Numbered from the stretch's first letter, positions 45,349-64,000 are shown. The stretch: 64,000 bases of DNA from a bacterium (GCA_029555085.1 JAKPTO010000026.1:37217-101216), one strand, 5' to 3'. The notes: generated by a model from the letters alone, not told the origin. Made by a program: numbers and translations.

Positions 45349-45350
45349 AA

Positions 45351-45911
45351 TTATTTTATATAATTTCTTGCACTTACTGTTGTTTGTAATAAAATTTCTG
45401 CACCATCTCTATTATCAACAAATGTCATAACAATTGTTACAAGTGTTTGCTTGTTTAAATCCCCAGCAAGCTTTTCTGTTGATATAGTTGGGCTAATATA
45501 AAAATACATATCTTTCACGCTAACACTATTTCCAGTTACATCACTCCAACCAGAATCATTATATTTAACTTGCAGAAAAGTATTGTTTTTTCCTCCAACT
45601 AATTTTACTTGTTTTCGAAAAAAAATCTTATTACCGGAATTATCTTCTAGAGCCAACTCTGTTATTGGGTTTTTTACTGTAAAATCTGGATAATAAGAAT
45701 AATCAACATTACCCAATCTTACTTCTCTAGATATATAATCCATTGCGAACCTCATCTCATTTTGTACCCTTTGCATTGCTATAATCTTTGTATTTGCCTT
45801 CATTGTTAATATGTACACACCAATACAAATCGTTGAAACAATACTAAAAATAGCAGTCGCGACAATCATTTCAAGTAATGTAAATCCTGGTTTTTTATAT
45901 ATTTTTTCCAT
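45351..45911 (-). CDS. Type IV pilin/pseudopilin with prepilin-type N-terminal cleavage/methylation motif
   Basis: 186 aa with KKPG-FTLLEMIVATAIFSIV. Confidence 0.8.
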   Translation of the reverse strand: MEKIYKKPGFTLLEMIVATAIFSIVSTICIGVYILTMKANTKIIAMQRVQNEMRFAMDYISREVRLGNVDYSYYPDFTVKNPITELALEDNSGNKIFFRKQVKLVGGKNNTFLQVKYNDSGWSDVTGNSVSVKDMYFYISPTISTEKLAGDLNKQTLVTIVMTFVDNRDGAEILLQTTVSARNYIK

Positions 45912-45922
45912 AAATTAAAATA

Positions 45923-46582
45923 CTATTTCCAATTATATATCCTTTCTTGTATCTGGGTTGTTTTGATCGAACCTCCATCGTTCCAACCAACTAAAGAAGT
46001 TACCTGTAGGCCTATAAAATTTGTAGGATCTTCGCATTCTGATTCTGGTGATGTATTAATTATTTCATCTTCCCATTCATCATTATAACAAATCGCATCT
46101 ATATATATTATTCTATAAAAATTAGCATCCGACAATTGATAAGAATCTAATCCCTCCATAGAATCTTTATGAACATATATTTTTTGATTTGGCGATTCTT
46201 CTGGCCAAGCTAAGAACAATTTACATTGTCCAGTCTCAAGACATTTATCCCAAGGTATGCTAATGTATTCTAAAATATATCCATCTTGATCTTCCCTGGG
46301 ATACTTATTATCTAATATAAATGTTCTTGAATCTCCATCAATTGCTAAATCCGGTAATAATCCACTGCTCCACGCTAATCCATCAATCCAATTTGAATCT
46401 CTTATATTTCTAACAACTTCCACTCCTTCTCTGGCTAAGTTCGTGGCTTTAAGCATATTATGATTGAAACGCTCAACCCTAAGATTCGCCACAACTAAAT
46501 TCATAATAGATAAAATACCTACCACTGCTATATAAATAGCTATTACTACCTCCAATATTCCCTGTGCTTTACTTTTTTTCAT
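45923..46582 (-). CDS. Type IV minor pilin-like protein (variant leader)
   Basis: 219 aa with KAQG-ILEVVIAIYIAVVGIL. Confidence 0.6.
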   Translation of the reverse strand: MKKSKAQGILEVVIAIYIAVVGILSIMNLVVANLRVERFNHNMLKATNLAREGVEVVRNIRDSNWIDGLAWSSGLLPDLAIDGDSRTFILDNKYPREDQDGYILEYISIPWDKCLETGQCKLFLAWPEESPNQKIYVHKDSMEGLDSYQLSDANFYRIIYIDAICYNDEWEDEIINTSPESECEDPTNFIGLQVTSLVGWNDGGSIKTTQIQERIYNWK

Positions 46583-46584
46583 AT

Positions 46585-47166
46585 TTAATTATTTAAAAAT
46601 TCAGACCATGTTTTACCAGAACCTGGAGTAATGTTTATTACCCATTTCCCCGGTGCCTTAGTACTGCCTAAAAATATCTGACAAGACAAAACATTTTCAT
46701 CTTTATTTTCATCTATAATAATAGACATTAAACCTTTTGGCATTGAAAAATTAATATCTAATGATTCTAATTCTTTTTCTTCGTATCCAAGTTCTGATTC
46801 ATCTTTAATTTTACACCGTAACTGATCAAAATAAAACTGACTTTCTAAAATATTTTCTGAATAAATTAAATTTTCATTATAAAAACCATAAACACCAATA
46901 TCTGCGTAAATATTATATGAATATGAACCATTTACATCCTTTAAAAAAATTATTCCATAACCATTAATAGGTACTGTATTTTGAATTTTTTGACCTGTTA
47001 GTGAAAGATTTTTTGTAAATCCTATTGAATCTTCTATGTCATAAGCTGTTAAACGAAATTCATTTATTCTTCTTGTATATCCATAATCAAGAATAACAAC
47101 ACTTAAGAGAATTACAAATATACCAATCGCAACTACAACCTCTATTATTGTAAAAGCTTTTTTCAT
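46585..47166 (-). CDS. Type IV pilin/pseudopilin (Ala at position -1)
   Basis: 193 aa with MKKA-FTIIEVVVAIGIFVILL. Confidence 0.7.
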   Translation of the reverse strand: MKKAFTIIEVVVAIGIFVILLSVVILDYGYTRRINEFRLTAYDIEDSIGFTKNLSLTGQKIQNTVPINGYGIIFLKDVNGSYSYNIYADIGVYGFYNENLIYSENILESQFYFDQLRCKIKDESELGYEEKELESLDINFSMPKGLMSIIIDENKDENVLSCQIFLGSTKAPGKWVINITPGSGKTWSEFLNN

Positions 47167-47960
47167 ATAATTAATAAATTAATATACCAATTCAATAATT
47201 GCTCTCCGAAAAGAAAAGAAATAAACATTGCAAAAGAAATAAATGGTCCAAGAGGAATTTTTAATTTAGTTTTTTCTTTTTTAGATTTAGATAATAAAAG
47301 AAAAATACCAATTATTGCTCCGGAAAAGTAAGTAATCAATAACGCCACAATTGTAATTTTAAATCCCAAAAGCGCACCCATAAAAACCCCGAGCAATATG
47401 TCTCCACTACCAAGCCATTTTCCTTTTGAAATAACATATTGTATACCAAAAAAAATTACTCCGAGAACAATCCCATAAAAAATATTTAAAATATTATTTT
47501 TCATTATTAAATTAAAAATAATAGATAAAACTATCCCCAAATAAACTATAAAATCCACTATTAAATAGTATTTCAAATCATAAATAAATATAAAAGACAA
47601 AATAAATACAAGTATTAAATAAAATATAAAGCTAATAATTAATTGACCATGAAGCCAAAGTCCAGAAACAAAGAAAAACCAATATCCGAATGAAAATAAA
47701 ATTCCTAGAATTACCTCAACAAAAAAATTCTCAAATTGAATCTTTGATTTACAATATCTACATTTCCCAAGTAAAACAATGTAAGAAAAAACTGGAATTA
47801 AATCTAAAATCCCCAATGTTTTTTTACAATTAAGACAATACGATCTATTAAGTATTGATTTTTCTTCATTTATTCGATAAATCAAGCAATCTAAAAAACT
47901 ACCAAAAACAGCCCCTAAAATAAAAAATAGTATATAGAACATACCATTATTATAGCACAA
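47163..47960 (-). CDS. pilD: Prepilin peptidase (A24 family, PilD)
   Basis: 265 aa, polytopic, with the N-terminal CLNC...CRYC zinc motif and GSGDILLG. It forms an ATGA overlap with the downstream pilin gene. Confidence 0.88.
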   Translation of the reverse strand: MCYNNGMFYILFFILGAVFGSFLDCLIYRINEEKSILNRSYCLNCKKTLGILDLIPVFSYIVLLGKCRYCKSKIQFENFFVEVILGILFSFGYWFFFVSGLWLHGQLIISFIFYLILVFILSFIFIYDLKYYLIVDFIVYLGIVLSIIFNLIMKNNILNIFYGIVLGVIFFGIQYVISKGKWLGSGDILLGVFMGALLGFKITIVALLITYFSGAIIGIFLLLSKSKKEKTKLKIPLGPFISFAMFISFLFGEQLLNWYINLLII

Positions 47961-51554: not shown

Positions 51555-53235
51555 ATTTTTGCTGATAAGTTAAATAATTATTATTTTCTTTTGAAAATAC
51601 TATAATAATAGAATCTTCAAGTTTTTCACTTAATATTTCTATTATTTTTATAATATCATTATAATTCAAATCAATCCAAATATTGTCAATAATAATAAGT
51701 TGTTTTTTATTAACTATGCAATGGAGCGCTTGAAGAGCAAAGCATGAAACATTATTATTAAAAGCCAACACACAAGAAGAATTAACATTATTTATAGAAG
51801 ATATTTTTGATGCAATAAATTGATTTTCAGATATTACCTTGATCACATTTTCAATTTCAGAAGAATTAATTTGTTCTTTATCTTTCCCTAAAATAAACTC
51901 CATCAAACTTTTTTCTGAAAATATTTTAGGATCGAAAAAATATGCGCCACAGAATAATTTTTGCCATATTGGATAATCATATCTTTTATTGTCTATTTTC
52001 ACCTTCATTGCCTTGGGATTATAAATACGCATTCCTGCAAAAATTTTAGCCAAACTTGTTTTTCCTGAAAAATTCTCTCCAAAAAATAAAATTCTTTCTG
52101 ATTTTTTAAAATGAAAATCTAGATTTCTGAAATATTTACCATCTTTAAATAATTTTGTTTTTTTTGCGTGAAACAATATTTCATTATGAATTTTTAAAGT
52201 ATTTTTTCTACGCAAAACTGCTCCTTTTTGCAATACTGTTAAAAACAAACCCAATCTTGCTGGAAAAAAATATAAACCAACTCTTAGCGCTTGATTAAGT
52301 GTTCTTGGAAAATAGAACATTAAAAATAAAAATAAAAATCTATTATCTCTACCAAGTAAATTTATAAAAGAAAAAAACTCATTTGTAAAAAAATTGCTTA
52401 AAATTACAATTATCAAAACTATCACAAATACAATTTTTGCGCTTATTCCAATCCAAAGATTTCTTCTAATGCGAAAAAAAGAATCTATATTAACAAGACG
52501 ATCAAACTTTTGTAGCACACTATCTTCATTATTAAAATTTTTATTAAAATATTTTTCTGATAAGCTAATATCGATATGTTTTATTATTTGTGAATAAAAA
52601 GTGACTTCTTGCGAAATATATTTTTTTGCAACATAATAAGCTATTATTCCTATAAGAATAGAAAGTGCCACGAAAAAAACGAAAACAATAAATAAATTTA
52701 ATCCTATTAAATATGCAATGAGCATTGCCACAGAAAAATATATGAACCATCTAATTATTCCAAAAAAAACAATTGATACACCCATTGAAACAAGCGATAA
52801 TTGATAAGAAATTTTTGCTATTAACCTACCCTGCCTTTCGTTGTTCATTGTTTCAACGGGTCTATCAATAAATGATTTAAATATTCTGCGCCTAATATCA
52901 TTTGCAAATAATACCACAATAGTTTTTTCTTGTTTTATAGAAAAAAATGAACTTATGATAAACAACAATATAAAAATAGCAAAAAATTGCCAAAAAAATG
53001 GGTCTAAAATACTATTTAGCTGAGATAATTTATTTCTACTAAATACAATAAGAAACGCTTCTATTACACAGGAAACAAAAATTAAAAGAACAAGACGCAA
53101 AATATAAAATTTATATTTTTTAAAAAAATCTCGTAAATACCCGTAATGTAAAAACGATAATTTTATATCTTTGTATTTATTCCTTGTTTTTCTAATTTCT
53201 TTTATTAATCTAATTTGTTCTTTTATTTCTTTCAT
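51520..53235 (-). CDS. ABC-exporter-like protein (type I 6-TM domain fused to a degenerate nucleotide-binding domain). Second gene of the RT operon.
   Basis: 571 aa. The TMD resembles ABC exporters (ANDIRRRIFKSFIDRPVETMNNERQGRLIAKISYQL). In the NBD, Walker A is retained (GENFSGKTS). The LSGGQ signature is replaced (NNVSCFALQALHCI). Walker B is LIIIDNIW (catalytic Glu replaced by Asn). There is no H-loop His. It overlaps the RT gene by 26 nt. Confidence 0.7.
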   Translation of the reverse strand: MKEIKEQIRLIKEIRKTRNKYKDIKLSFLHYGYLRDFFKKYKFYILRLVLLIFVSCVIEAFLIVFSRNKLSQLNSILDPFFWQFFAIFILLFIISSFFSIKQEKTIVVLFANDIRRRIFKSFIDRPVETMNNERQGRLIAKISYQLSLVSMGVSIVFFGIIRWFIYFSVAMLIAYLIGLNLFIVFVFFVALSILIGIIAYYVAKKYISQEVTFYSQIIKHIDISLSEKYFNKNFNNEDSVLQKFDRLVNIDSFFRIRRNLWIGISAKIVFVIVLIIVILSNFFTNEFFSFINLLGRDNRFLFLFLMFYFPRTLNQALRVGLYFFPARLGLFLTVLQKGAVLRRKNTLKIHNEILFHAKKTKLFKDGKYFRNLDFHFKKSERILFFGENFSGKTSLAKIFAGMRIYNPKAMKVKIDNKRYDYPIWQKLFCGAYFFDPKIFSEKSLMEFILGKDKEQINSSEIENVIKVISENQFIASKISSINNVNSSCVLAFNNNVSCFALQALHCIVNKKQLIIIDNIWIDLNYNDIIKIIEILSEKLEDSIIIVFSKENNNYLTYQQKYELGDEIRKIT

Positions 53236-54427
53236 AATGAAAGTCTAAATAAAAATTATATAATGATTTTATTTTTAAATATTCTATCTCTTTTCTTAAC
53301 AACCTTCTGTTGCGTGGTGAATATTTACCAAATATAAAATCTGTTAAAATACGGAAAAAATCTTCTGATAATTTTTTTATTTGTTCTGAGTTATTGATTT
53401 GTGGTTTATCTTTTATAATTTTTTGAAATTGGTAGTTAAAATTTTTTTCTGGATGTCCCATAATCCTTCTCAGTAAATACTTTTTTTTACTTAAATTATA
53501 ATTTTTATATTTTAAAATACTTTTCCAACCAGCAATAATACGCTTAATATATGATTTTTCTAAACTAATAATTCCTGAATTAAAGCAGTAGCCTAAAAAA
53601 GAAAAATTTTCTTTTGCATCACCAATAAATAATTTGCTATTATTTATTGTTAAATTTCTAATATTCAAATCTTTGATAATTTCTAATTTTAATTTATTTA
53701 GCTTGTCTATGTTATTATCAAAAATACCTATATCATCTCCTATTCTTATATAAAATGAACATTGTTTTTGATATTTATGATCAAGGTCTGTTAAATATAA
53801 ATTATTAAAAAGTGCTATTAGTGGAACACCCTGGACAAGACCTATATCAGGTGCTTCTATCTTACCATTTTTATATATTTTATTAAAAATAAATAATTTT
53901 AATAAATCTAATATTTTTCTATCTTCAAAAATGTTTTCCAGTTGTGAGTATAAAACATTCTTATCAATCAAGTCAGAATAGTTTTCCAAATCTAACACTA
54001 ATGCTTTGTCTGTAGAAAAATTTTTCCTATATCTATGGCAAAAATTTTTTGCTGCAAAATATGGTGGCTTGCCCGGCCTATATGAAAACAATCTTTTTGA
54101 AAAAACTTTTTCAAATTCTGGTAATAAAACTCTATAAATTGCCTGTGCTTTTATACGATCTTTTATATTATAAATAAAAATATCCCTGAATTTCTCGGGA
54201 TTATTTTTTTTAGGAATTGAAACAATAAGTGCTGGCTCAATTTCCCTATTTTCAACTAATTCTTTTTGACAAATATCTATAAGCTCCTTTGAATTTAAAT
54301 CTCTGTCTTGTATTGAAATATTATCCAAACCGTGATATCTAAAACTTTTACTATCTATAGAAAATTTTTCCACTATATCTAAATAAGCAGATCGAATATT
54401 ATCATAAGATACAATTTTATTAAACAT
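53210..54427 (-). CDS. Stand-alone reverse transcriptase, with no endonuclease or recognisable maturase extension
   Basis: 405 aa with RT motifs in order:
- SIPKKNNPEKFRDIFIYNIKDRIKAQAIYRVL (motifs 1-2)
- SYRPGKPPYFAAKNF (motif 2a/3 region)
- LVLDLENYSDLID (motif A)
- GLVQGVPLIALFNNLYLTDLD (motif B)
- FYIRIGDDIGIF (YxDD-type motif C)
- LTINNSKLFI...FSFLGYCF (motifs 6-7)
A ~110-aa helical tail follows. Confidence 0.85.
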   Translation of the reverse strand: MFNKIVSYDNIRSAYLDIVEKFSIDSKSFRYHGLDNISIQDRDLNSKELIDICQKELVENREIEPALIVSIPKKNNPEKFRDIFIYNIKDRIKAQAIYRVLLPEFEKVFSKRLFSYRPGKPPYFAAKNFCHRYRKNFSTDKALVLDLENYSDLIDKNVLYSQLENIFEDRKILDLLKLFIFNKIYKNGKIEAPDIGLVQGVPLIALFNNLYLTDLDHKYQKQCSFYIRIGDDIGIFDNNIDKLNKLKLEIIKDLNIRNLTINNSKLFIGDAKENFSFLGYCFNSGIISLEKSYIKRIIAGWKSILKYKNYNLSKKKYLLRRIMGHPEKNFNYQFQKIIKDKPQINNSEQIKKLSEDFFRILTDFIFGKYSPRNRRLLRKEIEYLKIKSLYNFYLDFHYERNKRTN

Positions 54428-54430
54428 ATT

Positions 54431-54624
54431 TTTAAAAATCGTCCTCAGGATATATAATAAAAATACTATATATTAATAAATCTAATGAAGACCCCCGTCC
54501 ACAAACTGGTTACAACCGTTTCCATTTTAATTAATTCGATATTAACGAATATAAAAAATTAAAACTAAAACGATTATTAATATCTCCTAAAATAGGAGTT
54601 TTGAGGATGATTTTTAAAAGTACA
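54431..54624 (-). ncRNA. Candidate structured non-coding RNA / leader immediately upstream of the RT gene (retron msr-msd-like or DRT-type ncRNA)
   Basis: A 17-nt inverted repeat with one mismatch (54431-54447 against 54602-54618) encloses about 154 nt. Inside are local hairpins CTCCT/AGGAG (54584-54598), ATTCG/CGAAT (54534-54550) and AAAC(T)GG/CCGTTT (54501-54521). A locally GC-rich core GAAGACCCCCGTCC stands out in an otherwise AT-rich intergenic region. The 3' arm ends 4 nt before the RT ATG. Confidence 0.4.
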
Positions 54625-54630
54625 TAATAT

Positions 54631-54660
54631 ATTATAGCATGTCAATAAAGCGTATGTAAA
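54631..54660 (-). promoter_or_regulatory. Sigma70-type promoter with extended -10, driving the RT leader and operon
   Basis: Minus strand: TTTACA (54660-54655), an 18-nt spacer, then TGcTATAAT (-10 at 54636-54631). The predicted TSS is near 54624. Confidence 0.5.
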
Positions 54661-54679
54661 GAATAAATATATAATTTTG

Positions 54680-54697
54680 TGATATAATTAATCTATG
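54680..54697 (+). promoter_or_regulatory. Extended -10 promoter placed for a leaderless recG mRNA
   Basis: TGaTATAAT (54680-54688) lies 6 nt upstream of the recG ATG (54695). No SD is present. Confidence 0.45.
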
Positions 54698-56758
54698 AAT
54701 CTAGATACAACACTTGATAAAATCTACGGAATAGGTCCAACAATCTATAAAAAATTACAAAAAATCGGATTAAATACAATATCTGATGCTATTTTTTATT
54801 ATCCATTTAGATATGAAGATTTTTCCCATTTAAAACAAATAAATGAGCTTGTAAATGAAGAATCTGCCACTATAAAAGGAAAAATCATACTTTTAAACAA
54901 TAAGAGATCTCCTAGAAAAAAAATGAATATCACTGAAATGCTTTTAGGAGATGATTCCGGACAAATTCAGATAATTTGGTTTAATCAACCATATATTAAA
55001 AATATATTACAAATTGGAGATGAGATATTTGTTTCAGGTGTTGTAAAAAAATCACTTTTGGGATTATCACTTATAAATCCAAATTATGAAAAAACTAATA
55101 GAGACACATCACACACTGCAAGAATTATTCCTATATATCCATCAACAGAGCATTTATCACAGAAACAACTTAGATACATAATAAAACAATCCTTGTCTTG
55201 TATAAATGAATTACATGAAAGGTTACCAAGTCAAATTATTAAAAAAGAAAATTTAATAGAAATAAAAGAGGCAATAAAACAAATTCACTTTCCAGATAAT
55301 TATAAAAAATTAGATCTTGCAAAAAAAAGATTATCATTTGATGAAATATTTTTATTATCATGTTTATCAAAATTTATTAAAAAACAAAATATTGAATTAA
55401 GCGCTCCTCAAATTAATTTCAAGGAAAAACAGATAAAAGATTTAGTAAAAAAAATTCCATTTAAATTAACAGAAGATCAAAGAAAGGCAACCTGGCAAAT
55501 TCTAAAAGATATTAGCCACAAAATTCCAATGAATAGACTTCTTGAAGGCGATGTAGGAAGTGGAAAGACAATTGTTTCTTTTATCTGCGCTTACAATGTA
55601 ATCTTGAACAAATATCAAGCAATTTTAATGTCTCCTACTCAGATTTTAACAAAACAACACTTTGAAAATGCTGTAAAATTTTTCAAGGACTATGATATTA
55701 ATATTTTACTTTTTACAAACTCTGACAGATTATTATTTAATGGAAAAAAACAATTAGCACAAAAATTAACAAAAAAAGAAATTAATAAGTTTGTCAAAAA
55801 ATCTGATTTTATAATAGGAACTCATTCTTTAATTCAGCAAAATGTAGAATTCAAAAATATTGGGCTCATAATAATTGACGAGCAACACAGATTCGGAGTT
55901 AAGCAGCGTCAAGAATTAACAAAAAAATCAGATATTAGTCCACACTTTTTATCAATGACTGCAACTCCAATTCCAAGATCTCTAGCGCTTACAATTTATG
56001 GAGATTTAGATATTTCAAAAATTTTACAAAAACCAGCAAACAGAAAAAAAATTATTACAAAATTTGTATATTCTCGCAACAGAACAAAAGCTTATGAATT
56101 TATTTATAACCAGATCCAAAACGGCAGACAAGTTTTTGTTGTGTGTCCACTTATAAATGAATCGGATAAATTAGGAGTAAAATCCGTAATGAGTGAATAT
56201 GAAAAATTAAGCAACGACATTTTTCCAAATTTAAAAATAGAATATTTACATGGAAAAATGAAAGAAACAGAAAAGCAAAAAATTCTAAAAAGTTTTTCTG
56301 ACAATGAAACAAAAATTTTAGTATCAACTTCTGTTATTGAGGTTGGAATTGATTTTCCAAATGTAACAATAATGATAATTGAAGGTGCTGATAGATTTGG
56401 ATTGGCATCACTCCATCAATTTCGAGGTCGTGTTGGTCGCGGAGAACATCAATCATTTTGCTTTTTATTTTCTGAATCAAACTCAGAAAAATCCCGTAAA
56501 CGTTTAGAAATATTAACAAAAACAGATAATGGATTTGAACTCGCAGAATATGATTTAAAATTTCGTGGAAGTGGAGATTTGTATGGAATAAAACAATCAG
56601 GATTTATGAATGGAGTGAAAATTGCAGATTTATCAGATTTAGAATTAATCAAAAAATGCAATATTTGGGCTCAATATATTTTTGAAAAAGGTCTTGAAAA
56701 ATTCCCTCAAATAAAAAAAGAGATAGAATTACTATCTTCTGATATTCACTTGGAATAA
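54695..56758 (+). CDS. recG: ATP-dependent DNA helicase RecG
   Basis: 687 aa with an N-terminal wedge/OB region, helicase motifs GDVGSGKT and DEQHRFG, and HQFRGRVGRG. Confidence 0.95.
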   Translation: MNLDTTLDKIYGIGPTIYKKLQKIGLNTISDAIFYYPFRYEDFSHLKQINELVNEESATIKGKIILLNNKRSPRKKMNITEMLLGDDSGQIQIIWFNQPYIKNILQIGDEIFVSGVVKKSLLGLSLINPNYEKTNRDTSHTARIIPIYPSTEHLSQKQLRYIIKQSLSCINELHERLPSQIIKKENLIEIKEAIKQIHFPDNYKKLDLAKKRLSFDEIFLLSCLSKFIKKQNIELSAPQINFKEKQIKDLVKKIPFKLTEDQRKATWQILKDISHKIPMNRLLEGDVGSGKTIVSFICAYNVILNKYQAILMSPTQILTKQHFENAVKFFKDYDINILLFTNSDRLLFNGKKQLAQKLTKKEINKFVKKSDFIIGTHSLIQQNVEFKNIGLIIIDEQHRFGVKQRQELTKKSDISPHFLSMTATPIPRSLALTIYGDLDISKILQKPANRKKIITKFVYSRNRTKAYEFIYNQIQNGRQVFVVCPLINESDKLGVKSVMSEYEKLSNDIFPNLKIEYLHGKMKETEKQKILKSFSDNETKILVSTSVIEVGIDFPNVTIMIIEGADRFGLASLHQFRGRVGRGEHQSFCFLFSESNSEKSRKRLEILTKTDNGFELAEYDLKFRGSGDLYGIKQSGFMNGVKIADLSDLELIKKCNIWAQYIFEKGLEKFPQIKKEIELLSSDIHLE

Positions 56759-56793
56759 ATTAAGAATATAAAATAAGCTAAACAATTCAAAAC

Positions 56794-58131
56794 TTAAATT
56801 AAAAACTTTTTAAGTTCTTTTATATTTTTGATACAATTCAAATTAATTCCTTTTACATCAACTGCTTTTTCAAAACTTGGAATAATTATATTTTTAAATC
56901 CTAAATTCACTGCTTCTTTTATTCTCTCTTTTGTTTTTGGTATTTGTCTAATTTCTCCATTGAGTCCTACTTCACCAAAAAATACTGAATTTTCCATAAT
57001 TTTTTTATTTTCATATGATGAATAAATTGCCACCGCAACCGCTAAATCAAGCGCGCGGTCCGAAACTTTGAAGCCACCAGTTAAATTAATATAAACATCA
57101 TATAAATTTAATTTTAAATCTAATTTTGATTGAAGTACTGCTATAAGTAATTCTAATCTTTTCTGATCATAACCAGATACGGTTCTTTTTGGATAACCAA
57201 AATTTGTTTTTGATACAAGTGCTTGAAGTTCTAACATTAAAACCTGATTTCCTTCTATAATAGAAGTAATTGCCGTGCCTGAACTTTCTGGATTAATTGA
57301 TGACAAATAAATTTTTGATGGATTTATCACTTCTTTAAATCCTGATTTTGTCATCTCTAAAATTACCGACTCATCAGTTGCTCCAAATCTATTTTTAACA
57401 GATTTCAAAATTCTAAATCTATGCAATCTATCACCTTCAAGACTCAGTACGCAATCAACTAAATGTTCCATTGTTTTAGGTCCCGCTAAATCACCTGATT
57501 TATTTACATGACTTATGATGAGAGTTGCAATATTAAATTTTCTTGCAATTTCCATAATTTTTACAGTACAAGCCCTTACTTGCGCGACTCCACCTGGATC
57601 GCTTTCAATCTCACTCGTGTAAAGTGTTTGAATTGAATCTATAATTAAAAAATCTGGTTTGATTTTTAATATTCCAGCTAGAATTATTTCTATATTATTT
57701 TCTGCCAAAAACTTTACTACTTTACTATCAACTTCCAATCTATCAAAACGAGATTTTACTGAACTTGCACTCTCTTCTCCTGAAACATATAAAGTATTTA
57801 AACTCTTGTTTATAATTTGAGAAATAATTGTAGATTTTCCAATCCCCGGCTCACCACCAAGTAAAACCAAAGAAGAAGGAACTAATCCTCCTCCGACTAC
57901 TTTATCAAAATAAGTTAATCCTGTTTTTATTTTTTTAACTTGTTCATTTTTTATTTTTGACAAATCTATGAAATCAACTTTTAAATCTTTTAAATTTTCT
58001 GTTTTGTCTTTTCTTTCGTCTTCGATAAATGTTTCTTTTTCTAATGTTCCCCAAGCACCACACTCAATACACTTTCCAGCCCATTTCGGAAATTGTGCTC
58101 CACATTTTGAACATGAATATATTGTTTTCAT
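56794..58131 (-). CDS. radA: DNA repair protein RadA/Sms
   Basis: 445 aa with the Zn finger CSKCGAQFPKWAGKCIECGAW, Walker A GGEPGIGKST, the KNRFG motif and a Lon-like C-terminal domain. Confidence 0.95.
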   Translation of the reverse strand: MKTIYSCSKCGAQFPKWAGKCIECGAWGTLEKETFIEDERKDKTENLKDLKVDFIDLSKIKNEQVKKIKTGLTYFDKVVGGGLVPSSLVLLGGEPGIGKSTIISQIINKSLNTLYVSGEESASSVKSRFDRLEVDSKVVKFLAENNIEIILAGILKIKPDFLIIDSIQTLYTSEIESDPGGVAQVRACTVKIMEIARKFNIATLIISHVNKSGDLAGPKTMEHLVDCVLSLEGDRLHRFRILKSVKNRFGATDESVILEMTKSGFKEVINPSKIYLSSINPESSGTAITSIIEGNQVLMLELQALVSKTNFGYPKRTVSGYDQKRLELLIAVLQSKLDLKLNLYDVYINLTGGFKVSDRALDLAVAVAIYSSYENKKIMENSVFFGEVGLNGEIRQIPKTKERIKEAVNLGFKNIIIPSFEKAVDVKGINLNCIKNIKELKKFLI

Positions 58132-58157
58132 TTAATTATATTAGTTTTATATTTATA

Positions 58158-59570
58158 TTATCTACCGATTCCCTTTCTTGCTATATTCTCAAATCCTAAT
58201 TCTTTGCATTTATTATAACGAGCTAATTTTAAATTACCAGTAGAAATAGCCCACTGACTCGTTGTGCCTCCAGCATATCTTCTAAAACAAAGTTCCAAGT
58301 TACCATCTTTACAATACTGATGTTTCCATCCTAAAACAAAAGCTTCTAAATTAGAATCAATAGTTAATAATGAATCAAAACTAAAACACTTATTTTGATA
58401 TATAAAACCATTATTATTATTACATAAAATATCTTGTTTAGAATGGTAAGTAATTTGACCCAAACCCAATCCAAATGTATAACCTTTTTTATTTATATAG
58501 TTTTTCCAATTAGAAATAGAGACCCCTGGAATATTTTTATCATAAACATACTTAGAGCAATTAGGATTATTACACAACTCTCTTTTATTGCTATTAATTT
58601 TTCCTGCCAACCAATCCTTGCAACAAGAAGGATAAAGATTACATATATGTGCCCTGCGAGCAATAATATCACAAGCCGTGTCTCTAGTAACAGCCGAGTC
58701 ATTGCCAAATGCTCTTGGGTCTCCTCCTGATTCTTGATGAATTACAGCATAATAAATACACTCATCTATATTGTTCCACTTAGCAGACTTTTGAATACCA
58801 ACAATTACTTCCTCAGAAAAAATATGACTATCACCAACAGATTTTATATTAGACCCAGATCCAATATAAGAACCACTACTAGCTAATTCATATCTATCAA
58901 CTTCAATAGGTATAATCTTCTCCACCTTTATTGGTACTATATTCAACAAGGCTGGATTTATTGTTTGGAGTATCAAAACAGAAGAAACGCATAAAACAAA
59001 CCCTATTAAAGCATTTTGTAGTCTTGATTTAGCTTCCCCTATTTTACTCTGATTTCCTCCTGCTAATACCCACTGAAAACCAGCCAATATTATTGCTAAA
59101 ACAGCCACGATTCCTGATAAATATATTAAATATCTAAAAAGTACTACTAAAAAATCTCCAATCAAAGCACCGCTTACCTCTACTTCACTTCTAAAACCTG
59201 GTATTCCGACTTCTGGAGTAAATGATATAGATTTTGGTTCCCCAGGAGTTTCATCTACGCCTTCATTTGAATTATTTTGACAATCAGAAGCCCATTGTTT
59301 AATAGCCTCCTGTTTATAGTGATTACGAAATTCAATATCATGCACAACTTCAGCTGGAAATCCAGCTGCCGTATTCTGCAACTCCCTATCCATCCAAGTC
59401 GTATACAAACCCTGATAATCAACGCTAGATTTATTTAAATCAGTGGCCGGACAATAACTCGGCCTTAAGTATTTTAAATTGGGATCATCCGGTAACTGTG
59501 CCTCTACGCCTCTAAAAAAAAACAGAAACGCTACACTAAAAATAAATAAATATCTCCTTATCTTATTCAT
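58158..59570 (-). CDS. Secreted fusion protein: T4SS-pilin-like two-TM module plus C-terminal lytic transglycosylase (SLT/VirB1-like) domain
   Basis: 470 aa with signal peptide MNKIRRYLFIFSVAFLFFFRGVEA. The pilin-like hairpin is LFRYLIYLSGIVAVLAIILAGFQWVLAGGNQSKIGEAKSRLQNALIGFVLCVSSVLIL. The SLT catalytic region is YYAVIHQESGGDPRAFG, followed by GLGLGQIT. Confidence 0.65.
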   Translation of the reverse strand: MNKIRRYLFIFSVAFLFFFRGVEAQLPDDPNLKYLRPSYCPATDLNKSSVDYQGLYTTWMDRELQNTAAGFPAEVVHDIEFRNHYKQEAIKQWASDCQNNSNEGVDETPGEPKSISFTPEVGIPGFRSEVEVSGALIGDFLVVLFRYLIYLSGIVAVLAIILAGFQWVLAGGNQSKIGEAKSRLQNALIGFVLCVSSVLILQTINPALLNIVPIKVEKIIPIEVDRYELASSGSYIGSGSNIKSVGDSHIFSEEVIVGIQKSAKWNNIDECIYYAVIHQESGGDPRAFGNDSAVTRDTACDIIARRAHICNLYPSCCKDWLAGKINSNKRELCNNPNCSKYVYDKNIPGVSISNWKNYINKKGYTFGLGLGQITYHSKQDILCNNNNGFIYQNKCFSFDSLLTIDSNLEAFVLGWKHQYCKDGNLELCFRRYAGGTTSQWAISTGNLKLARYNKCKELGFENIARKGIGR

Positions 59571-59574
59571 ATTT

Positions 59575-60237
59575 TCATTTGATAATTGATTTTATAATAT
59601 TTTCCAAATTTTCTTGAGTTATCTCACCTTCAAATTTTTGTTGATTTATAAAAATTGTTGGAATTTGCTCTACTTTAAGCACATATGCCTCCACTATATT
59701 ATTATCTATATCTTCCAAGTACTTCTGCGAAGAATAACATGATACAAATTTATTTGTATCCATTTTTAATTTTTCTGAAATTCTTTTATATAAATCTAAA
59801 GAAAATTTTTCATCGGTATTTAGTAACTCATTATTATATTCCCAATATTTATCCTGCTCAAGAGAACAACGAGCCGCTAGAGCTGAACCCTTTGAAAAAA
59901 TATTTGTAGAAAGTGGCAAATCTTTCCAAACCAAATTAACATCTTTTGGATATTTTTTTATTATTTCATCTATAATATTCAAAATATTTTTTGTTTCACT
60001 TGTTTCATAATCAGTAAATAAATAAATACTAACCTGTGTATTCCTCTCTCCTTTAATTGGATCATTTATAAATGATGATAATAAATATTTTTCTTGGGTC
60101 GTGGTTTCCACAATTTGCTTTTCATTTTTAATTTTTATAATCTTATAAAAATTAAACAAATTATAAAATAAAAAACTAAGACCTATTAGAATAAAAATCA
60201 TTACAATAATTGAAATTATTTTGTCTTGCTTGTTCAT
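59575..60237 (-). CDS. DsbA-like thioredoxin-fold protein lacking the CxxC active site
   Basis: 220 aa with an N-terminal TM helix. It aligns by eye with the DsbA at 40070-40783, with FTDYETSET in place of FSDFNCPYC. The other Cys pair is conserved (AARCSLEQDKYWEY / FVSCYSSQKY against ASSCANEQGKFWEM / FKDCYLSKKY). Confidence 0.6.
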   Translation of the reverse strand: MNKQDKIISIIVMIFILIGLSFLFYNLFNFYKIIKIKNEKQIVETTTQEKYLLSSFINDPIKGERNTQVSIYLFTDYETSETKNILNIIDEIIKKYPKDVNLVWKDLPLSTNIFSKGSALAARCSLEQDKYWEYNNELLNTDEKFSLDLYKRISEKLKMDTNKFVSCYSSQKYLEDIDNNIVEAYVLKVEQIPTIFINQQKFEGEITQENLENIIKSIIK

Positions 60238-60265
60238 TTTTTTATCAAATATTGAATATTAAATT

Positions 60266-61501
60266 TTATTTCAAATCAATACTATATAGATACCCAGTAG
60301 ATGAATCTATATAATACATCTGTGAATCATTCTGATTCGTATATATCTTATCTATTGAAATTCTATTATTATTTACCATTGGCTGGGCAATTATTTGCTG
60401 ATTTCCTGTTGATATATTTATTTTATAAATAGAATAAGGAATTCCACTTGCTAAACCCGGATTAAGCCCAGCTCCTCTTGGCATAGAATCTGGCACAGCA
60501 CAATAAACAACATCATTATTTGATTGACTAAAAGAACATTTATTTATCCAGGTATTTATTCCCATAGATACCTTCCCATAACCCAAATCGTCTCCCTGAC
60601 CATTTGCAAACCACAAAGTTGGCTTAAAATCGCTTCTCTGTGATGTAACATTATATAGAAGTTTATCGCCTTGCGTATTCCACATACCATCAAAATTAAA
60701 ACCATCAACAACCAATGATCTTAAATTTTTATCATCTTCATTGATAAAATATATTTCCTGTCTTTCTAAATCATATTGTTTTCTAAAGGTTGCCATCACC
60801 TCGCCATTTGGGCTCCAAATATTTTTTATATTCCTTGCCTGATCAGCTATCGGCCTTATAAATTTGAAATTACTCGCGTCTGAATTAGAAGTGACTAAAT
60901 AATTCTGATCTTCATAATCACCCATCCATTTATAAGACAATTTATCACCTGTTTCAGAAAAAGCAAAGTCTTGAGTTTCTTGTGGAAATCTTGCTATAAA
61001 TTCTTCTCTTTCAAAATCATACAATACTTTTGTATTATCTGGATATTCTAAAATTGCTTGATTTTTTGTGGGTGAAAAAGTTGCATTAGTTACAGAATAA
61101 AATTTCCTATCAGATAATTTAGAAATAGTACCATCCCCTGAAACCTTGAAAAAACTCTGATTCAAATTATCATAATACACAACTCCATTATTTACTGCGC
61201 TATAAGTGTTTATGCTTGCTATATTTTTACCAACAACTTCTTGAGAATTTGTTACTAGCTCTTCATCTGTTCCCATAATTTCTGGTTTAGTTGTGATAAT
61301 TGTCTCGCCTCCAGTATCTATTATCTGCGGACCACCAATACCAACATCTGGAAACCCTACATCACTAGGCGTGGTATCAATTGGTGAAGAAATTGGTTCT
61401 TGCTTTCTTGCAAAAAATGTAAAATAAATAAGAAAAGCCATTCCGATACTAACCGCTAAAAAAAGTAATATTAAAATTATTTTTTTTGTATTTTCAGGCA
61501 T
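60266..61501 (-). CDS. Membrane-anchored beta-propeller (TolB/PD40-like) protein
   Basis: 411 aa with an N-terminal TM helix. Repeated strands with the WSPNG signature (IWSPNGEVMATF, GDKLLYNV, GDKLSYKW) are typical of PD40-like blades. Confidence 0.5.
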   Translation of the reverse strand: MPENTKKIILILLFLAVSIGMAFLIYFTFFARKQEPISSPIDTTPSDVGFPDVGIGGPQIIDTGGETIITTKPEIMGTDEELVTNSQEVVGKNIASINTYSAVNNGVVYYDNLNQSFFKVSGDGTISKLSDRKFYSVTNATFSPTKNQAILEYPDNTKVLYDFEREEFIARFPQETQDFAFSETGDKLSYKWMGDYEDQNYLVTSNSDASNFKFIRPIADQARNIKNIWSPNGEVMATFRKQYDLERQEIYFINEDDKNLRSLVVDGFNFDGMWNTQGDKLLYNVTSQRSDFKPTLWFANGQGDDLGYGKVSMGINTWINKCSFSQSNNDVVYCAVPDSMPRGAGLNPGLASGIPYSIYKINISTGNQQIIAQPMVNNNRISIDKIYTNQNDSQMYYIDSSTGYLYSIDLK

Positions 61502-61619
61502 TGTAATTTTATTATTTTATAAAATATTTAAATTAATTTTTTATAATTTATCATCAATCGCCACCAAATATTGATAAAAAATACTATCCATTCTTTCACA
61601 GTTAAACTTTTCAACGTTT

Positions 61620-62513
61620 CTAAGTAACCCCTAGTAAATCCCCTATTGCAGACTTTAGTAAGTCTAATAAATCTTTTATAGCATCGATAGGATCTGTTAA
61701 AATATACCCTATTAAAAATAATAGTAAAAATATAATTGTCAAAAGTGCTATAATTATAGCTCCTATAAGAACAAAAGCTATCATTGCTCCATGGTTCATT
61801 TTATCCTTACCTTCTAATATTTCTTTTGTCGCTAGGGCTGGATTTGTTATAGAAACAAAATGACAAAATAACTGACTACCCATTATATATTTACCTATAA
61901 AATGAAATGCCAAATAAAACCATGTTAAACCATAACTATCGATTAAATGTTCATAAGAAAACTTATAGGCGGCAAAAGATGCTAACTTTAATTTGTTTTT
62001 AGCTTTTGTTTTAGCATCAGCTGCCTTTTTCTTAATATTAGCAATTCCCTGTCCTAATTTACTATTTCTTAATTTCTCTTTTTGTCTTTCTAAAAATCTT
62101 GCCTTTTGTTTTGCCTGTTCAAGAGCTGCTTTTGGATTTTCATCTGGATCAATGGTTTGAGAAATTTCTGAATTATCATTCTGAGCATTGACATTATCTG
62201 AATTATCTTGATTTGTATCTGATTGCCTGTAGTCTGGTTGTTGATTTATTGCACCAATGGTACTTAAAGGTAAATCGCTATTGCTTGGCCTAACTAATCC
62301 ACTCTCACCCTCTCTTTTCGCAGTCTCCCTACCCTGTCTTAACTGTGAAATAGGCCCCCTTAAATCTTCTGGGGTCGACGCCTCTTCCAAAAATTCTGTT
62401 CCATATTTTATAGAGGATTTAACTCCCCCAGTAATACCACCAACTTCATTTCTAACTGCACCAGCAACAGTTTTAAAGCGTCTCCCAATAGTTGATGATG
62501 CTTTACTTGGCAT
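61620..62513 (-). CDS. Hypothetical membrane protein of the T4SS-like locus (disordered N-terminal half, 2-3 C-terminal TM helices)
   Basis: 297 aa. The N-terminal ~170 aa are polar, Lys-rich and low complexity. The C-terminus has helices YGLTWFYLAFHFIGKYIMG and AMIAFVLIGAIIIALLTIIFLLLFLIGYIL. Confidence 0.5.
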   Translation of the reverse strand: MPSKASSTIGRRFKTVAGAVRNEVGGITGGVKSSIKYGTEFLEEASTPEDLRGPISQLRQGRETAKREGESGLVRPSNSDLPLSTIGAINQQPDYRQSDTNQDNSDNVNAQNDNSEISQTIDPDENPKAALEQAKQKARFLERQKEKLRNSKLGQGIANIKKKAADAKTKAKNKLKLASFAAYKFSYEHLIDSYGLTWFYLAFHFIGKYIMGSQLFCHFVSITNPALATKEILEGKDKMNHGAMIAFVLIGAIIIALLTIIFLLLFLIGYILTDPIDAIKDLLDLLKSAIGDLLGVT

Positions 62514-62517
62514 AATA

Positions 62518-63081
62518 TTATTTCCATGAAACAGAATCTACTAACCATTTATCATTTACAAAAACTAATGACAAATCTGCTTTTTTATAAAAAGTTGCTT
62601 CTTCTCCGTTTTTCGATTCTATTTGCTGTAATTGAAGAGAAACAAGCGCCGAATTATTATCTAACTCTAAAATCGTTGCATTTATAAGTTTAGTAGTTAT
62701 TCCATAATAATTTTTATTATCTGAAAAATTAGCATTACTTGATATATAATTTTTTGCCTGACTATACATATGATCAGTTATCATTGGAGAAATAAGTTCA
62801 TAAAAATCTTCTGTTTGATTTGACCACGATCCATAGCGTTCTATAAAATTTCTCGCAGTTTCGATTACTAATGAATTTTCATCAATTTTTGCATTAGATT
62901 CAAATTCTAATGAGTTAAATTCTTCTTTTTTAGGTTCTTCCATAACCTGCTGTGGCGGAATCTGATCCTCTGGTTTTATAATTTCCTGTTTTGGTTTTTT
63001 AAAAAATATAATTAAAAAAGTCAGCAATATAATTATTATTAAAATAACCAAGATAATTATTTGTTTTTTATTTATTTGCAT
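62518..63081 (-). CDS. Membrane-anchored protein with NTF2-like (VirB8/TcpC-like) ectodomain (tentative)
   Basis: 187 aa with an N-terminal TM helix. The ~120-aa C-terminal domain ends in ...SLVFVNDKWLVDSVSWK. The size, topology and position next to VirB4 resemble VirB8-type components. Confidence 0.4.
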   Translation of the reverse strand: MQINKKQIIILVILIIIILLTFLIIFFKKPKQEIIKPEDQIPPQQVMEEPKKEEFNSLEFESNAKIDENSLVIETARNFIERYGSWSNQTEDFYELISPMITDHMYSQAKNYISSNANFSDNKNYYGITTKLINATILELDNNSALVSLQLQQIESKNGEEATFYKKADLSLVFVNDKWLVDSVSWK

Positions 63082-63113
63082 ACAATTTTATTTCAATTAA
63101 TTATTATATTAAA

Positions 63114-64000
63114 TTAATTTTGAATCCTATTTAATTGTTCAAATTCTTTTTTTGCGGCTTCTATTTCAAGTAATTGTCTTGGATCTGATGTGATTAGTTG
63201 ATCCTCTGTGTACGATGCTTCAATTTGAATAGCAACATGTTTATTTCCAGCAAAAAATATTCCCTGACCAACTTTTCCTTGTAATAATAAATATTTTTCT
63301 TCCTGGGTTAATAAAAATGTTTTTTGTATTAACTCAATAGCCGCTGGAGATTGTTTTAATAATAATTGCAAAGCCGAATTTGTAACTATTGCTTGTCCAT
63401 ACGGAGAAATCAAGAAATCATTCACATCCTGAGTTATAGTTGTCACTCCTAAATAATATTTTCTACATCTTTTGACAAGTGAAAAAATAAACTTAGCGCT
63501 ATCTTCGTGTTGCATTAACCACCAAGCCTCATCAATAATTAATATTCTTTTTTTCATACTTGACCGAACTATATTCCATATATAATTTATTATTGTATAA
63601 ATTGCTATAGGACGAAGTTCATCTTCTAAATCTCTAACACTGAAAACCACTAACTGATTTGATATATTAACATTGGTTGGGCTATTAAATAATCCGGAAA
63701 ATGTTCCTTCTGTATATTTTTTAATTCTCTGAGCTAAATTTTCTCCCCCCTGAATTCCTTCTAAAACTTCCTCAAAATCTTTCATAAGTGGAGATTCTAT
63801 ATTGTCTATATCACTGTCTTCAGTTATATCTTTTTTTGCGTATGTTTCTACTAATGCTCTATCAACAATTGAATCTTCCAGATGCGTCAAATCTCCAACC
63901 ATTAATCTAGTCAATCCCTTTAGAGTTATAACTGCGCTTCTTATTATATCACCAATTCTCATTTCCTTTGTAAGTCCACGCGGTAAATCAAATGGATTTA
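63114..64000 (-). CDS. VirB4/TrbE/TraC-like type IV secretion ATPase, C-terminal part (the ORF continues beyond the window)
   Basis: Walker B ILIIDEAWWLM, then GVTTITQDVNDFL and NSALQLLLKQS motifs. Hand translation upstream of the track's first Met (...NPFDLPRGLTKEMRIG...) shows the frame stays open to base 64000. Confidence 0.85.
   Translation of the reverse strand, partial: NPFDLPRGLTKEMRIGDIIRSAVITLKGLTRLMVGDLTHLEDSIVDRALVETYAKKDITEDSDIDNIESPLMKDFEEVLEGIQGGENLAQRIKKYTEGTFSGLFNSPTNVNISNQLVVFSVRDLEDELRPIAIYTIINYIWNIVRSSMKKRILIIDEAWWLMQHEDSAKFIFSLVKRCRKYYLGVTTITQDVNDFLISPYGQAIVTNSALQLLLKQSPAAIELIQKTFLLTQEEKYLLLQGKVGQGIFFAGNKHVAIQIEASYTEDQLITSDPRQLLEIEAAKKEFEQLNRIQN

Follow-up and report, generated by a model that had tools for sequence, protein, structure and literature searches.

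A probable non-conjugative type IV secretion locus of the Patescibacteria ABY1 type beside radA and recG

A string of minus-strand genes with a VirB4-type ATPase lies at one end of a 64,000-nucleotide stretch of bacterial DNA (GCA_029555085.1 JAKPTO010000026.1:37217-101216; the whole stretch is called the window here). It raises the question of whether these genes belong to a conjugative element or form a chromosomal type IV secretion system (T4SS) with another role. The original prediction, made from the DNA of the window, favoured a chromosomal, non-conjugative T4SS-like apparatus of a candidate phyla radiation (CPR) lineage, possibly serving DNA uptake or host interaction. Housekeeping flanks and Patescibacteria relatives bear this out, and the locus is very probably a non-conjugative T4SS of Patescibacteria. 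It derives from the monoderm conjugation machinery of mating-pair formation class MPF-FATA (TrsD-containing subclass) and has ceased to belong to a conjugative element. The inspected DNA consists of the window and ~9 kb beyond its edge, that is, ~73 kb of a 127-kb contig. The latter, designated L001, comes from an ENA metagenome and has the same sequence as the window; it was reached via the 187-aa VirB8-like protein encoded on it and carries the T4SS genes on its plus strand. Window content was established by Pfam scans of essentially all open reading frames (ORFs) of at least 100 aa, and the content of the 9 kb past the edge from precomputed Pfam assignments of the genes called in L001. Scanning one genome per GTDB species yielded 80 related loci (81 with L001), whose gene families were compared by phmmer and then by iterated hidden Markov models (HMMs).

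Six minus-strand ORFs, all in one direction, are found between position 58158 and the window edge in the ORF listing of 54000-64000 (Table 1), and the genes of the string are separated by gaps of 4-118 bp. As homologues occur in the same order in related genomes, we regard the six as real genes and not chance ORFs. The original prediction of six co-directional minus-strand genes was exact in its coordinates and too small in its count: in L001 the cluster begins ~3.3 kb past the window edge. The complete string has ten genes, encoding a 359-aa orphan, a PrgI/VirB3-like protein, a TrsD-like protein, VirB4, the VirB8-like protein, a protein with two transmembrane (TM) helices, a PD40 propeller, a DsbA-like protein, a pilin-SLT fusion and RadA. 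The cluster thus comprises at least nine T4SS-linked genes plus radA. As predicted, radA comes directly next to the pilin-SLT gene, 26 bp after it and on the same strand, and is the last gene of the string. The recG gene is convergent with radA and is a conserved neighbour, outside the apparatus itself. A promoter and terminator scan of the cluster, whose DNA has 28% GC, gave counts equal to those of shuffles (89 sites where 83.6 were expected, and 5 where 4.1 were), so the operon structure is read from gene spacing.

The part of VirB4 that lies within the window contains the Walker B motif ILIIDEAWW and matches P-loop_TraG/AAA_10 of Pfam. The complete protein has 621 aa (L001 8103-9968, reaching ~64979 in window numbering) and scores 355.9 bits on the NCBIfam model NF045971 ('VirB4-like conjugal transfer ATPase, CD1110 family'), over the cut-off of 325 bits. 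A CagE_TrbE_VirB N-domain was also found in it. Reading the partial gene at the edge as a VirB4-type ATPase was therefore correct. VirB4 homologues number thousands, and among the 120 matches listed, which are 69-100% identical, all those with a lineage name come from metagenome-assembled genomes of Patescibacteria/CPR. Judged by these database matches, the protein groups with the VirB4s of Patescibacteria and appears to be a bona fide monoderm (MPF-FATA) type.

Directly upstream of virB4 is the gene for the TrsD-like protein (223 aa; NF041427 TrsD, 2.3e-8), and a PrgI/VirB3-like protein of 145 aa with two TM helices is likewise encoded upstream (PF12666, 3.5e-6, 27.9 bits against a cut-off of 27). 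On the long mycoplasma VirB4 model NF045975, the TrsD-like protein covers positions 99-246 and VirB4 covers 276-893. Since the two match consecutive parts of one model, the pair behaves like a split VirB4, in which the TrsD-like protein is the counterpart of the N-terminal part of a long VirB4, carried by a gene of its own. The core is headed by the orphan, a soluble protein of 359 aa (g359; L001 5822-6901, ~66181-67260 in window numbering), whose gene is the first T4SS core gene in 76-78 of the 81 ABY1 loci. Conservation in g359 is confined to the C-terminal ~110 aa (W304, Y313 and an FRRLG-like motif). It matched none of the Pfam and NCBIfam families, and a profile search of PDB sequences returned nothing significant. 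It might serve the system in the cytoplasm, as a receptor or an adaptor.

The 187-aa protein encoded after virB4 had been called VirB8-like, and structure prediction supports this. In the AlphaFold2 model, built on a 12-sequence alignment, a TM helix (residues 5-27) and a disordered linker precede an NTF2-like C-terminal domain of three helices and a four-strand sheet, with pLDDT (predicted local distance difference test) values >90 for residues 65-187. Foldseek searches of the PDB with this model retrieved CagV, PrgL, TcpC, IcmL-like proteins, DotI, Rickettsia VirB8 and R388 VirB8, with target TM-scores of 0.55-0.74 for CagV, PrgL, TcpC, DotI and R388 VirB8 among the matches. Interspersed among them were further proteins of the NTF2 fold, for example the CaMKII hub; as the fold also occurs in proteins foreign to T4SSs, it is not discriminating by itself. 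The Pfam VirB8 profile (PF04335) matched two of 78 orthologues, at 1.1e-4, and not the window copy, and the family profile found nothing significant among PDB sequences. Phmmer places the gene directly after virB4 in 75 of the 81 loci, and the iterated HMM does so in all 81. From topology and gene position, VirB8-like is the sensible reading: the protein has the topology, predicted fold and position of a VirB8, with thin evidence from sequence. HMMs of the VirB8-like and propeller families cross-matched in their N-terminal regions after three iterations. First-pass phmmer gave no such match, so we treated it as TM/linker contamination and rejected homology between the two.

The next gene encodes a 297-aa protein with a long, charged N-terminal (cytoplasmic) region, no signal peptide and a C-terminal hydrophobic hairpin of two TM helices. 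It evolves fast, with sequence similarity detectable in only 7-13 loci, and relatives that have the accessory module encode a 2-TM protein of 150-350 aa at the same position. No Pfam or NCBIfam family matched it. The idea that it is a VirB2 or VirB6 paralogue was dropped for want of profile evidence for either.

Two predicted extracytoplasmic proteins follow. The first was called a beta-propeller, and this call agrees with the family as a whole: PD40 (Pfam) was detected in 16 of 23 orthologues (best 9.7e-7), together with other beta-propeller families, and the alignment contains recurring WSPxG-type blade motifs. The window copy itself stayed below the Pfam threshold with no significant family, and the family profile retrieved nothing significant from PDB sequences. 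The propeller gene is present in 19 of the 38 relatives with enough flank. The second protein, of 220 aa, matches Thioredoxin_4 (4.1e-16) and DSBA (4.3e-7) of Pfam and has ETSE at the aligned CXXC position. Given a fold family that is still matched and a CXXC replaced by ETSE, it is likely DsbA-like in fold and not a redox-active member. The description 'dead' DsbA thus fits this copy; it does not extend to the family, as most ABY1 orthologues keep a CxxC (CQFC, CPFC and others), and a few other lineages share the loss. The motif is also lost in three loci (L004, L035 and L036) and half-lost in three others (L007, L010 and L033), a pattern that points to lineage-specific loss. A second DsbA-like gene with an intact CPYC is encoded at 40070-40783 (minus strand), adjoining lgt at 39297-40073, and could replace the redox activity lost by the T4SS-linked copy. 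Elton et al. are said to have described in 2005 (J Bacteriol) that the F-plasmid T4SS cluster encodes the periplasmic thioredoxin-fold proteins TraF and TrbB, and that TraF, without a CXXC, is nevertheless needed for pilus assembly. TraF would be a precedent for a 'dead' DsbA-like component. However, the F plasmid has a different, diderm class of T4SS (MPF-F), the likeness to the 220-aa protein is one of description, and most ABY1 orthologues keep the CXXC.

The last T4SS-linked gene was predicted to encode a pilin fused to a lytic transglycosylase, and both halves find support. The 470-aa protein consists of a signal peptide, a variable N-region, a VirB2-like two-helix membrane hairpin at ~136-204 and a Cys-rich C-terminal domain at ~250-470. 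T4SS_pilin (PF18895) matches with 35.3 bits against a cut-off of 26.6, and the predicted model places a helical hairpin at 136-204. For the C-terminal domain the Pfam SLT match of the window copy is weak (E=0.058). The domain contains E280-S281, GLGLGQIT and RYAGG, which we take to be counterparts of the family-1 lytic transglycosylase motifs, and E280, S281, G367, G369 and Q372 are invariant in a 31-sequence alignment. With a goose-lysozyme-like fold in the model, a presumptive catalytic Glu in E-S, and GLMQ-like and AYNxG-like motifs, it has the features of a family-1 SLT domain, and we consider it a predicted lytic-transglycosylase-fold domain. A single-sequence search of PDB sequences with the SLT-like domain found nothing significant.

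Orthologues at the same position clarify the design of this protein. Some carry an SLT domain behind the same hairpin (6e-21, 5e-18 and 5e-15), and others a Peptidase_M15_4 (6e-20) or 3D domain (1e-7). With SLT, M15 or 3D domains behind one hairpin, what is conserved is a pilin-like hairpin joined to a swappable wall hydrolase. An exhaustive HMMER search with the full-length protein found the pilin domain in 15,719 cluster representatives at E<=0.001; ~30 of the best 150 also span the C-terminal domain. A word-indexed homologue search with the C-terminal domain alone (58161-58880) gave no match, not even its own parent sequence, which is a gap in the sensitivity of that search.

Is the cluster part of a mobile element? 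Housekeeping genes lie on both sides of it, within 100 bp to 1 kb; upstream of g359 are genes for a methyltransferase, a radical-SAM protein, SHMT and FolD. GC content ranges from 22 to 37% across the whole window, and the T4SS locus does not deviate from its surroundings. No relaxase family was detected in the scanned window ORFs or in the precomputed families of the 9 kb beyond. The scanned window ORFs also contained no family of type IV coupling proteins (T4CPs) or FtsK-like proteins, and neither a coupling protein nor, by Pfam, an integrase was found in the ~73 kb. There is no flanking tRNA gene, the sole tRNA gene being 35 kb from the cluster, and the radA/recG side showed no repeats that would bound the cluster. 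Its housekeeping neighbours, the lack of relaxase, T4CP and integrase, and the distance to the tRNA gene place the cluster in ordinary chromosome. Within ~73 kb, none of the hallmarks of a conjugative element (relaxase, T4CP, a boundary of integrase, att site or tRNA gene, patchy distribution) was observed.

The related loci, where named to candidate phylum, are all from Patescibacteria and come mostly from Komeili-, Falkow-, Kerfeld-, Magasanik-, Buchanan- and Uhrbacteria (GTDB class ABY1). Many of the GTDB records (L002, L004, L007, L010 and others; third-party annotation, or TPA, assemblies) are titled 'uncultured Gammaproteobacteria bacterium', which on clearly Patescibacteria-type loci looks like a placeholder or a mislabel. 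The core order g359-PrgI-TrsD-VirB4-VirB8-like is kept in 75-81 of the 81 loci, and the TrsD-like and PrgI-like genes precede virB4 in the same order in 79-81. Downstream, two patterns were seen. In the first, shown by L001, there follow a 2-TM protein, up to one extra pilin-like gene, the PD40 propeller, the DsbA-like protein, the pilin-hydrolase fusion, radA and the convergent recG. In the second, a ComFC-like gene or radA comes directly after the VirB8-like gene. The ComFC-like gene (double zinc ribbon plus phosphoribosyltransferase) holds this place in 29 of the 81 loci, including L011, L012, L018, L027, L067 and L079; comF is absent from the ~73 kb of this genome. In many ABY1 relatives radA directly follows the last T4SS gene. 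Among the 38 relatives whose downstream flank reaches 8 kb or more, 36 have radA, recG or comF beside the cluster and 27 have recG within 10 kb. The block from propeller to radA is inverted as a unit in five relatives (L011, L012, L033, L056 and L078) with recG staying adjacent, and in L081 the block and recG are in an inverted arrangement with no radA detected.

The original prediction had seen no relaxase, T4CP or integrase, and named as decisive the sequence past position 64000, the place of the ATPase relative to FtsK/HerA, and synteny in related genomes. On all three counts the findings favour a chromosomal T4SS. The extension contains the PrgI/VirB3-like, TrsD-like and orphan genes and then housekeeping genes, with no relaxase, T4CP, integrase, att site or tRNA gene. 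The idea of an integrated conjugative element, intact or in decay, whose relaxase, T4CP and integrase lie outside the sequence seen, would be in keeping with the origin of the VirB4, TrsD, PrgI and pilin families in conjugation systems, with the ~54 kb of the contig that lie beyond the ~73 kb inspected, and with a reverse-transcriptase gene 3.7 kb away. It is nevertheless very improbable, given the close housekeeping flanks on both sides, the missing tRNA or repeat boundaries, the unremarkable GC and the rarity of relaxases in Patescibacteria (just 103 of 3,035 genomes; PMC12102498). Moreover, the same core order in 80 species-level relatives, with VirB4s 67-80% identical, is the pattern of vertical descent. 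Even less credible, to the point of being negligible, is that there is no T4SS here at all and that the ATPase is of HerA/FtsK or Ced type and works in an unrelated membrane complex. VirB4 does have secondary matches to DUF87/HerA (3.4e-7) and to CedB (NF041017; 1.8e-15, 56.6 bits against a cut-off of 700). These are weak, the best match and the one above its cut-off being to the VirB4 family, with the N-domain present as well; and four more T4SS-specific components (PrgI, TrsD, VirB8-like, T4SS_pilin) adjoin. We therefore rejected a HerA/FtsK identity on the NF045971 score together with the VirB8-like fold and the T4SS_pilin alongside.

Systems of this kind have been described before. The T4SS that Wang et al. 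(2023; PMC10633639) described in Southlakia epibionticum is Gram-positive-like and has pilins, but neither relaxase nor coupling protein; it was essential for epibiotic growth, comEC, comF and dprA being dispensable, and the authors took the absence of coupling protein and relaxase to suggest protein export or another role. Quinonero-Coronel et al. (2025; PMC12102498), who surveyed 3,035 genomes, detected VirB4 in 2,417 of them and placed a Patescibacteria VirB4 clade, nested in MPF-FATA, within the same broad radiation as archaeal VirB4-like proteins. They also reported TrsD, PrgI and VirB2-like pilins near virB4, VirB8 homologues nearly confined to ABY1, and a link of the ABY1 T4SS locus to comF, recG and radA. 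A 2025 review counts the Patescibacteria systems as a new T4SS subgroup (PMC12857230). The idea of a non-conjugative CPR T4SS is thus already published (PMC10633639, PMC12102498). Our locus shares with the Patescibacteria systems (S. epibionticum SEML1_0006-0019; PMC12102498) a monoderm-type VirB4 with adjacent TrsD-like and PrgI/VirB3-like genes, VirB2-like pilins, which are unusual for monoderms, the lack of a relaxase and a chromosomal location. It further shares with those of ABY1 a detectable VirB8 homologue, here supported by its predicted fold, and linkage to comF/recG/radA, with radA and recG adjacent here. As gene content matches both studies and the ABY1 linkage matches PMC12102498, the locus is an ordinary member of the already-described Patescibacteria T4SS, ABY1 type.

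Differences are found in the accessory genes. Saccharimonadia T4SSs have arrays of small pilins, a recognizable VirB6 and separate peptidase and lysozyme genes, whereas the present locus has no detectable VirB6 and a pilin-like hairpin fused to a hydrolase. It also adds a PD40 propeller and a DsbA-like gene to what is described for Southlakia and in PMC12102498. Those parts of the text and supplements of PMC12102498 that were available to us do not mention a thioredoxin/DsbA protein, a propeller or a pilin-hydrolase fusion. The swappable-hydrolase pilin fusion, the propeller and DsbA-like genes in the cluster and the lineage-specific CXXC loss therefore appear to be small additions.

Among the MPF-FATA conjugation systems compared (pGO1/pSK41 Trs, pCF10 Prg/Pcf and the CD1110 family of Clostridioides difficile CTn2), the last is the one whose family cut-off the present VirB4 exceeds. 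TrsD is characteristic of the pGO1 subclass, which lacks a recognizable VirB6 too. The likeness to Gram-positive MPF-FATA systems extends to a PrgI-like VirB3, a PrgL/TcpC-like NTF2 VirB8 domain and a dedicated wall hydrolase in the role of PrgK/TraG. Those systems, however, are borne on plasmids or integrative conjugative elements with relaxase, T4CP and oriT, they have no VirB2-like pilins, and their hydrolases are of SLT+CHAP type and unfused to a pilin hairpin. Helicobacter pylori ComB is a chromosomal T4SS without relaxase, VirD4 or VirB11, whose DNA import feeds ComEC/ComF and recombination proteins; it is of the diderm MPF-T type, with VirB7, VirB9 and VirB10. Its likeness to the role we favour is a functional analogy, and orthology is limited to the shared T4SS core. 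Crenarchaeal Ced (CedA/CedB) likewise has a VirB4/HerA-like ATPase without a relaxase, which drives DNA import. With a CedB score far below the cut-off and no CedA-like match, our locus is not a member of that system.

How might such an apparatus work? A VirB4 hexamer, tethered to the membrane via the VirB3-like protein and acting with TrsD, would energize the assembly of an envelope-spanning conduit or short pilus of VirB2-like hairpin proteins, with the NTF2 domain of the VirB8-like protein as a scaffold on the outer side of the membrane. From its pilin-like hairpin, the SLT domain would make local cuts in the peptidoglycan of the cell itself and possibly of the host. The PD40 propeller and thioredoxin-fold protein would help outside the cytoplasm, in assembly or in binding. 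Being rich in Cys, the SLT domain is probably a client of DsbA, and the second DsbA, with its CPYC, could supply the chemistry. In the most speculative step, nucleic acid, most likely imported from the host or the environment, would be handed to proteins that process single-stranded DNA, ComFC, RadA and RecG being the recipients. Such import would be functionally akin to that of the ComB or Ced importers, which also lack a relaxase and T4CP. Taken as a whole, this explanation, an MPF-FATA-derived, non-conjugative Patescibacteria T4SS working in this manner, seems to us reasonably probable.

That the T4SS translocates nucleic acid is a claim we make tentatively, as something short of an even chance. 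Nucleic acid is favoured as substrate since comFC, radA and recG are kept with the cluster in ABY1 genomes. Several points weigh against it. In Southlakia the dispensability of comEC, comF and dprA alongside an essential T4SS (PMC10633639) means that the essential role there is not ComEC-dependent transformation. Synteny inside one class may be inherited gene order and not functional coupling, and co-transcription with radA is inferred from gene spacing only. The ~73 kb contain no VirB6-like polytopic channel protein and no T4CP, in a contig of which these ~73 kb were inspected, and ABY1 systems are known from their genes alone. The same facts lend themselves to an apparatus for the export of proteins or effectors, or for some other manipulation of the host cell at the contact site, with radA/recG/comF as inherited order. 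The argument of Wang et al. from the absent coupling protein and relaxase supports this, as does the essential T4SS with its non-essential com genes (PMC10633639); protein-secreting T4SSs without T4CP exist, namely Ptl and Brucella VirB (cited in PMC12102498), and the extracytoplasmic hydrolase and propeller proteins could act on a host envelope. The cluster and the DNA next to it show no candidate effector genes, however, and the tight, recurrent placement of comFC/radA and their co-inversion with the accessory block exceed a loose neighbourhood; we consider export somewhat unlikely, though a serious contender.

A third possibility confines the machine to an adhesive VirB2-type pilus or attachment organelle, with VirB4 as its assembly motor and nothing translocated. 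VirB2-like domains are abundant, as the 15,719 representatives at E<=0.001 illustrate, each locus has one or two pilin-like genes, and neither T4CP nor VirB6 was found in the ~73 kb. A 2026 preprint, moreover, describes tubular structures at the host interface of an RNA-feeding Patescibacterium and proposes that they are T4SS pili (bioRxiv 10.64898/2026.06.21.733656). Yet the 'pilins' here have 240-520 aa and large hydrolase domains, unlike small polymerizing pilins. Type IV pili are already present for adhesion, judging from window genes and from PMC12206443, and a link to DNA-processing genes would be left unexplained. A pilus alone is accordingly improbable. Returning to nucleic-acid import, a more specific version of it would be ComEC-independent. 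Here the VirB4/TrsD/VirB3/VirB8 core would be combined with an undescribed extracytoplasmic module, a VirB2-like hairpin with interchangeable SLT/M15/3D hydrolases, the PD40 propeller and the DsbA-like protein, which would breach the host wall. DNA or RNA of the host or environment would be delivered straight to the co-encoded ComFC, RadA and RecG, with g359 as substrate receptor in place of a coupling protein. We regard this version as doubtful.

Table 1. Features of the T4SS locus and its radA/recG side (window numbering)
Feature	Position	Strand	Evidence
VirB4 ATPase, C-terminal 295 codons	63114..64000 (open at window edge)	-	Translation; P-loop_TraG 5e-18
VirB8-like bitopic protein, 187 aa	62518..63081	-	Predicted fold, position
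2-TM membrane protein, 297 aa	61620..62513	-	ORF, topology
Predicted PD40/TolB-type beta-propeller, membrane-anchored, extracytoplasmic, 411 aa	60266..61501	-	Pfam matches of orthologues
DsbA/Thioredoxin_4-like protein, membrane-anchored, without CXXC, 220 aa	59575..60237	-	Pfam, alignment
Predicted pilin-SLT fusion, 470 aa	58158..59570	-	PF18895; SLT-type fold and motifs
radA/sms	56794..58131	-	Zn ribbon, RecA-like ATPase and Lon-like C-domain (Pfam)
recG helicase	54695..56758	+	RecG_wedge, DEAD, Helicase_C

Elsewhere, the window contains housekeeping and repair genes for IleRS, NAD-ligase (LigA), GatA, TGT, RecO, SmpB, IF3, L20, L25, Lgt and base-excision repair enzymes, together with a MacB-type ABC system, an M23 peptidase, rubrerythrin and desulfoferrodoxin. 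Adjoining recG is a gene for a 405-aa reverse transcriptase (53210-54427, minus strand) in which RVT_1 is the only family (3e-13); a weak homologue occurs ~4 kb from recG in L019. A link to a diversity-generating retroelement or other retroelement was dropped, since no template/variable-type repeats were found within 8 kb. The separate type IV pilin cluster that had been noted is indeed present at 44512-47960 (minus strand), with an A24 prepilin peptidase (47163-47960) and at least two pilins with an N-methyl motif (45351-45911 and 46585-47166); the ORFs adjoining these genes matched no Pfam family. Two giant ORFs, at 14813-20356 (1847 aa) and 33635-38758 (1707 aa), both on the minus strand and without a Pfam match at E<=0.001, may encode large surface proteins typical of CPR genomes. 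An 863-aa protein (30155-32746, minus strand) combines Peptidase_M23 and CBM_4_9 with Por_Secre_tail, the C-terminal sorting domain of the type IX secretion system; in a monoderm Patescibacterium such a signal comes as a surprise.

A large part of bacterial diversity belongs to the Patescibacteria, and no T4SS before theirs had been shown to be essential for the growth of its owner. The present locus is a clean and complete ABY1 example; it mainly confirms published comparative genomics and sharpens the nucleic-acid hypothesis. In ABY1 the machine is joined to radA, recG and comFC and has what is predicted to be its own wall-cutting enzyme on a pilin-like anchor. Should import take the ComEC-independent form, it would tie the essentiality of the T4SS to nucleotide scavenging by organisms unable to make nucleotides. 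Import of nucleic acid, if confirmed, would explain how organisms without nucleotide synthesis feed on their hosts.

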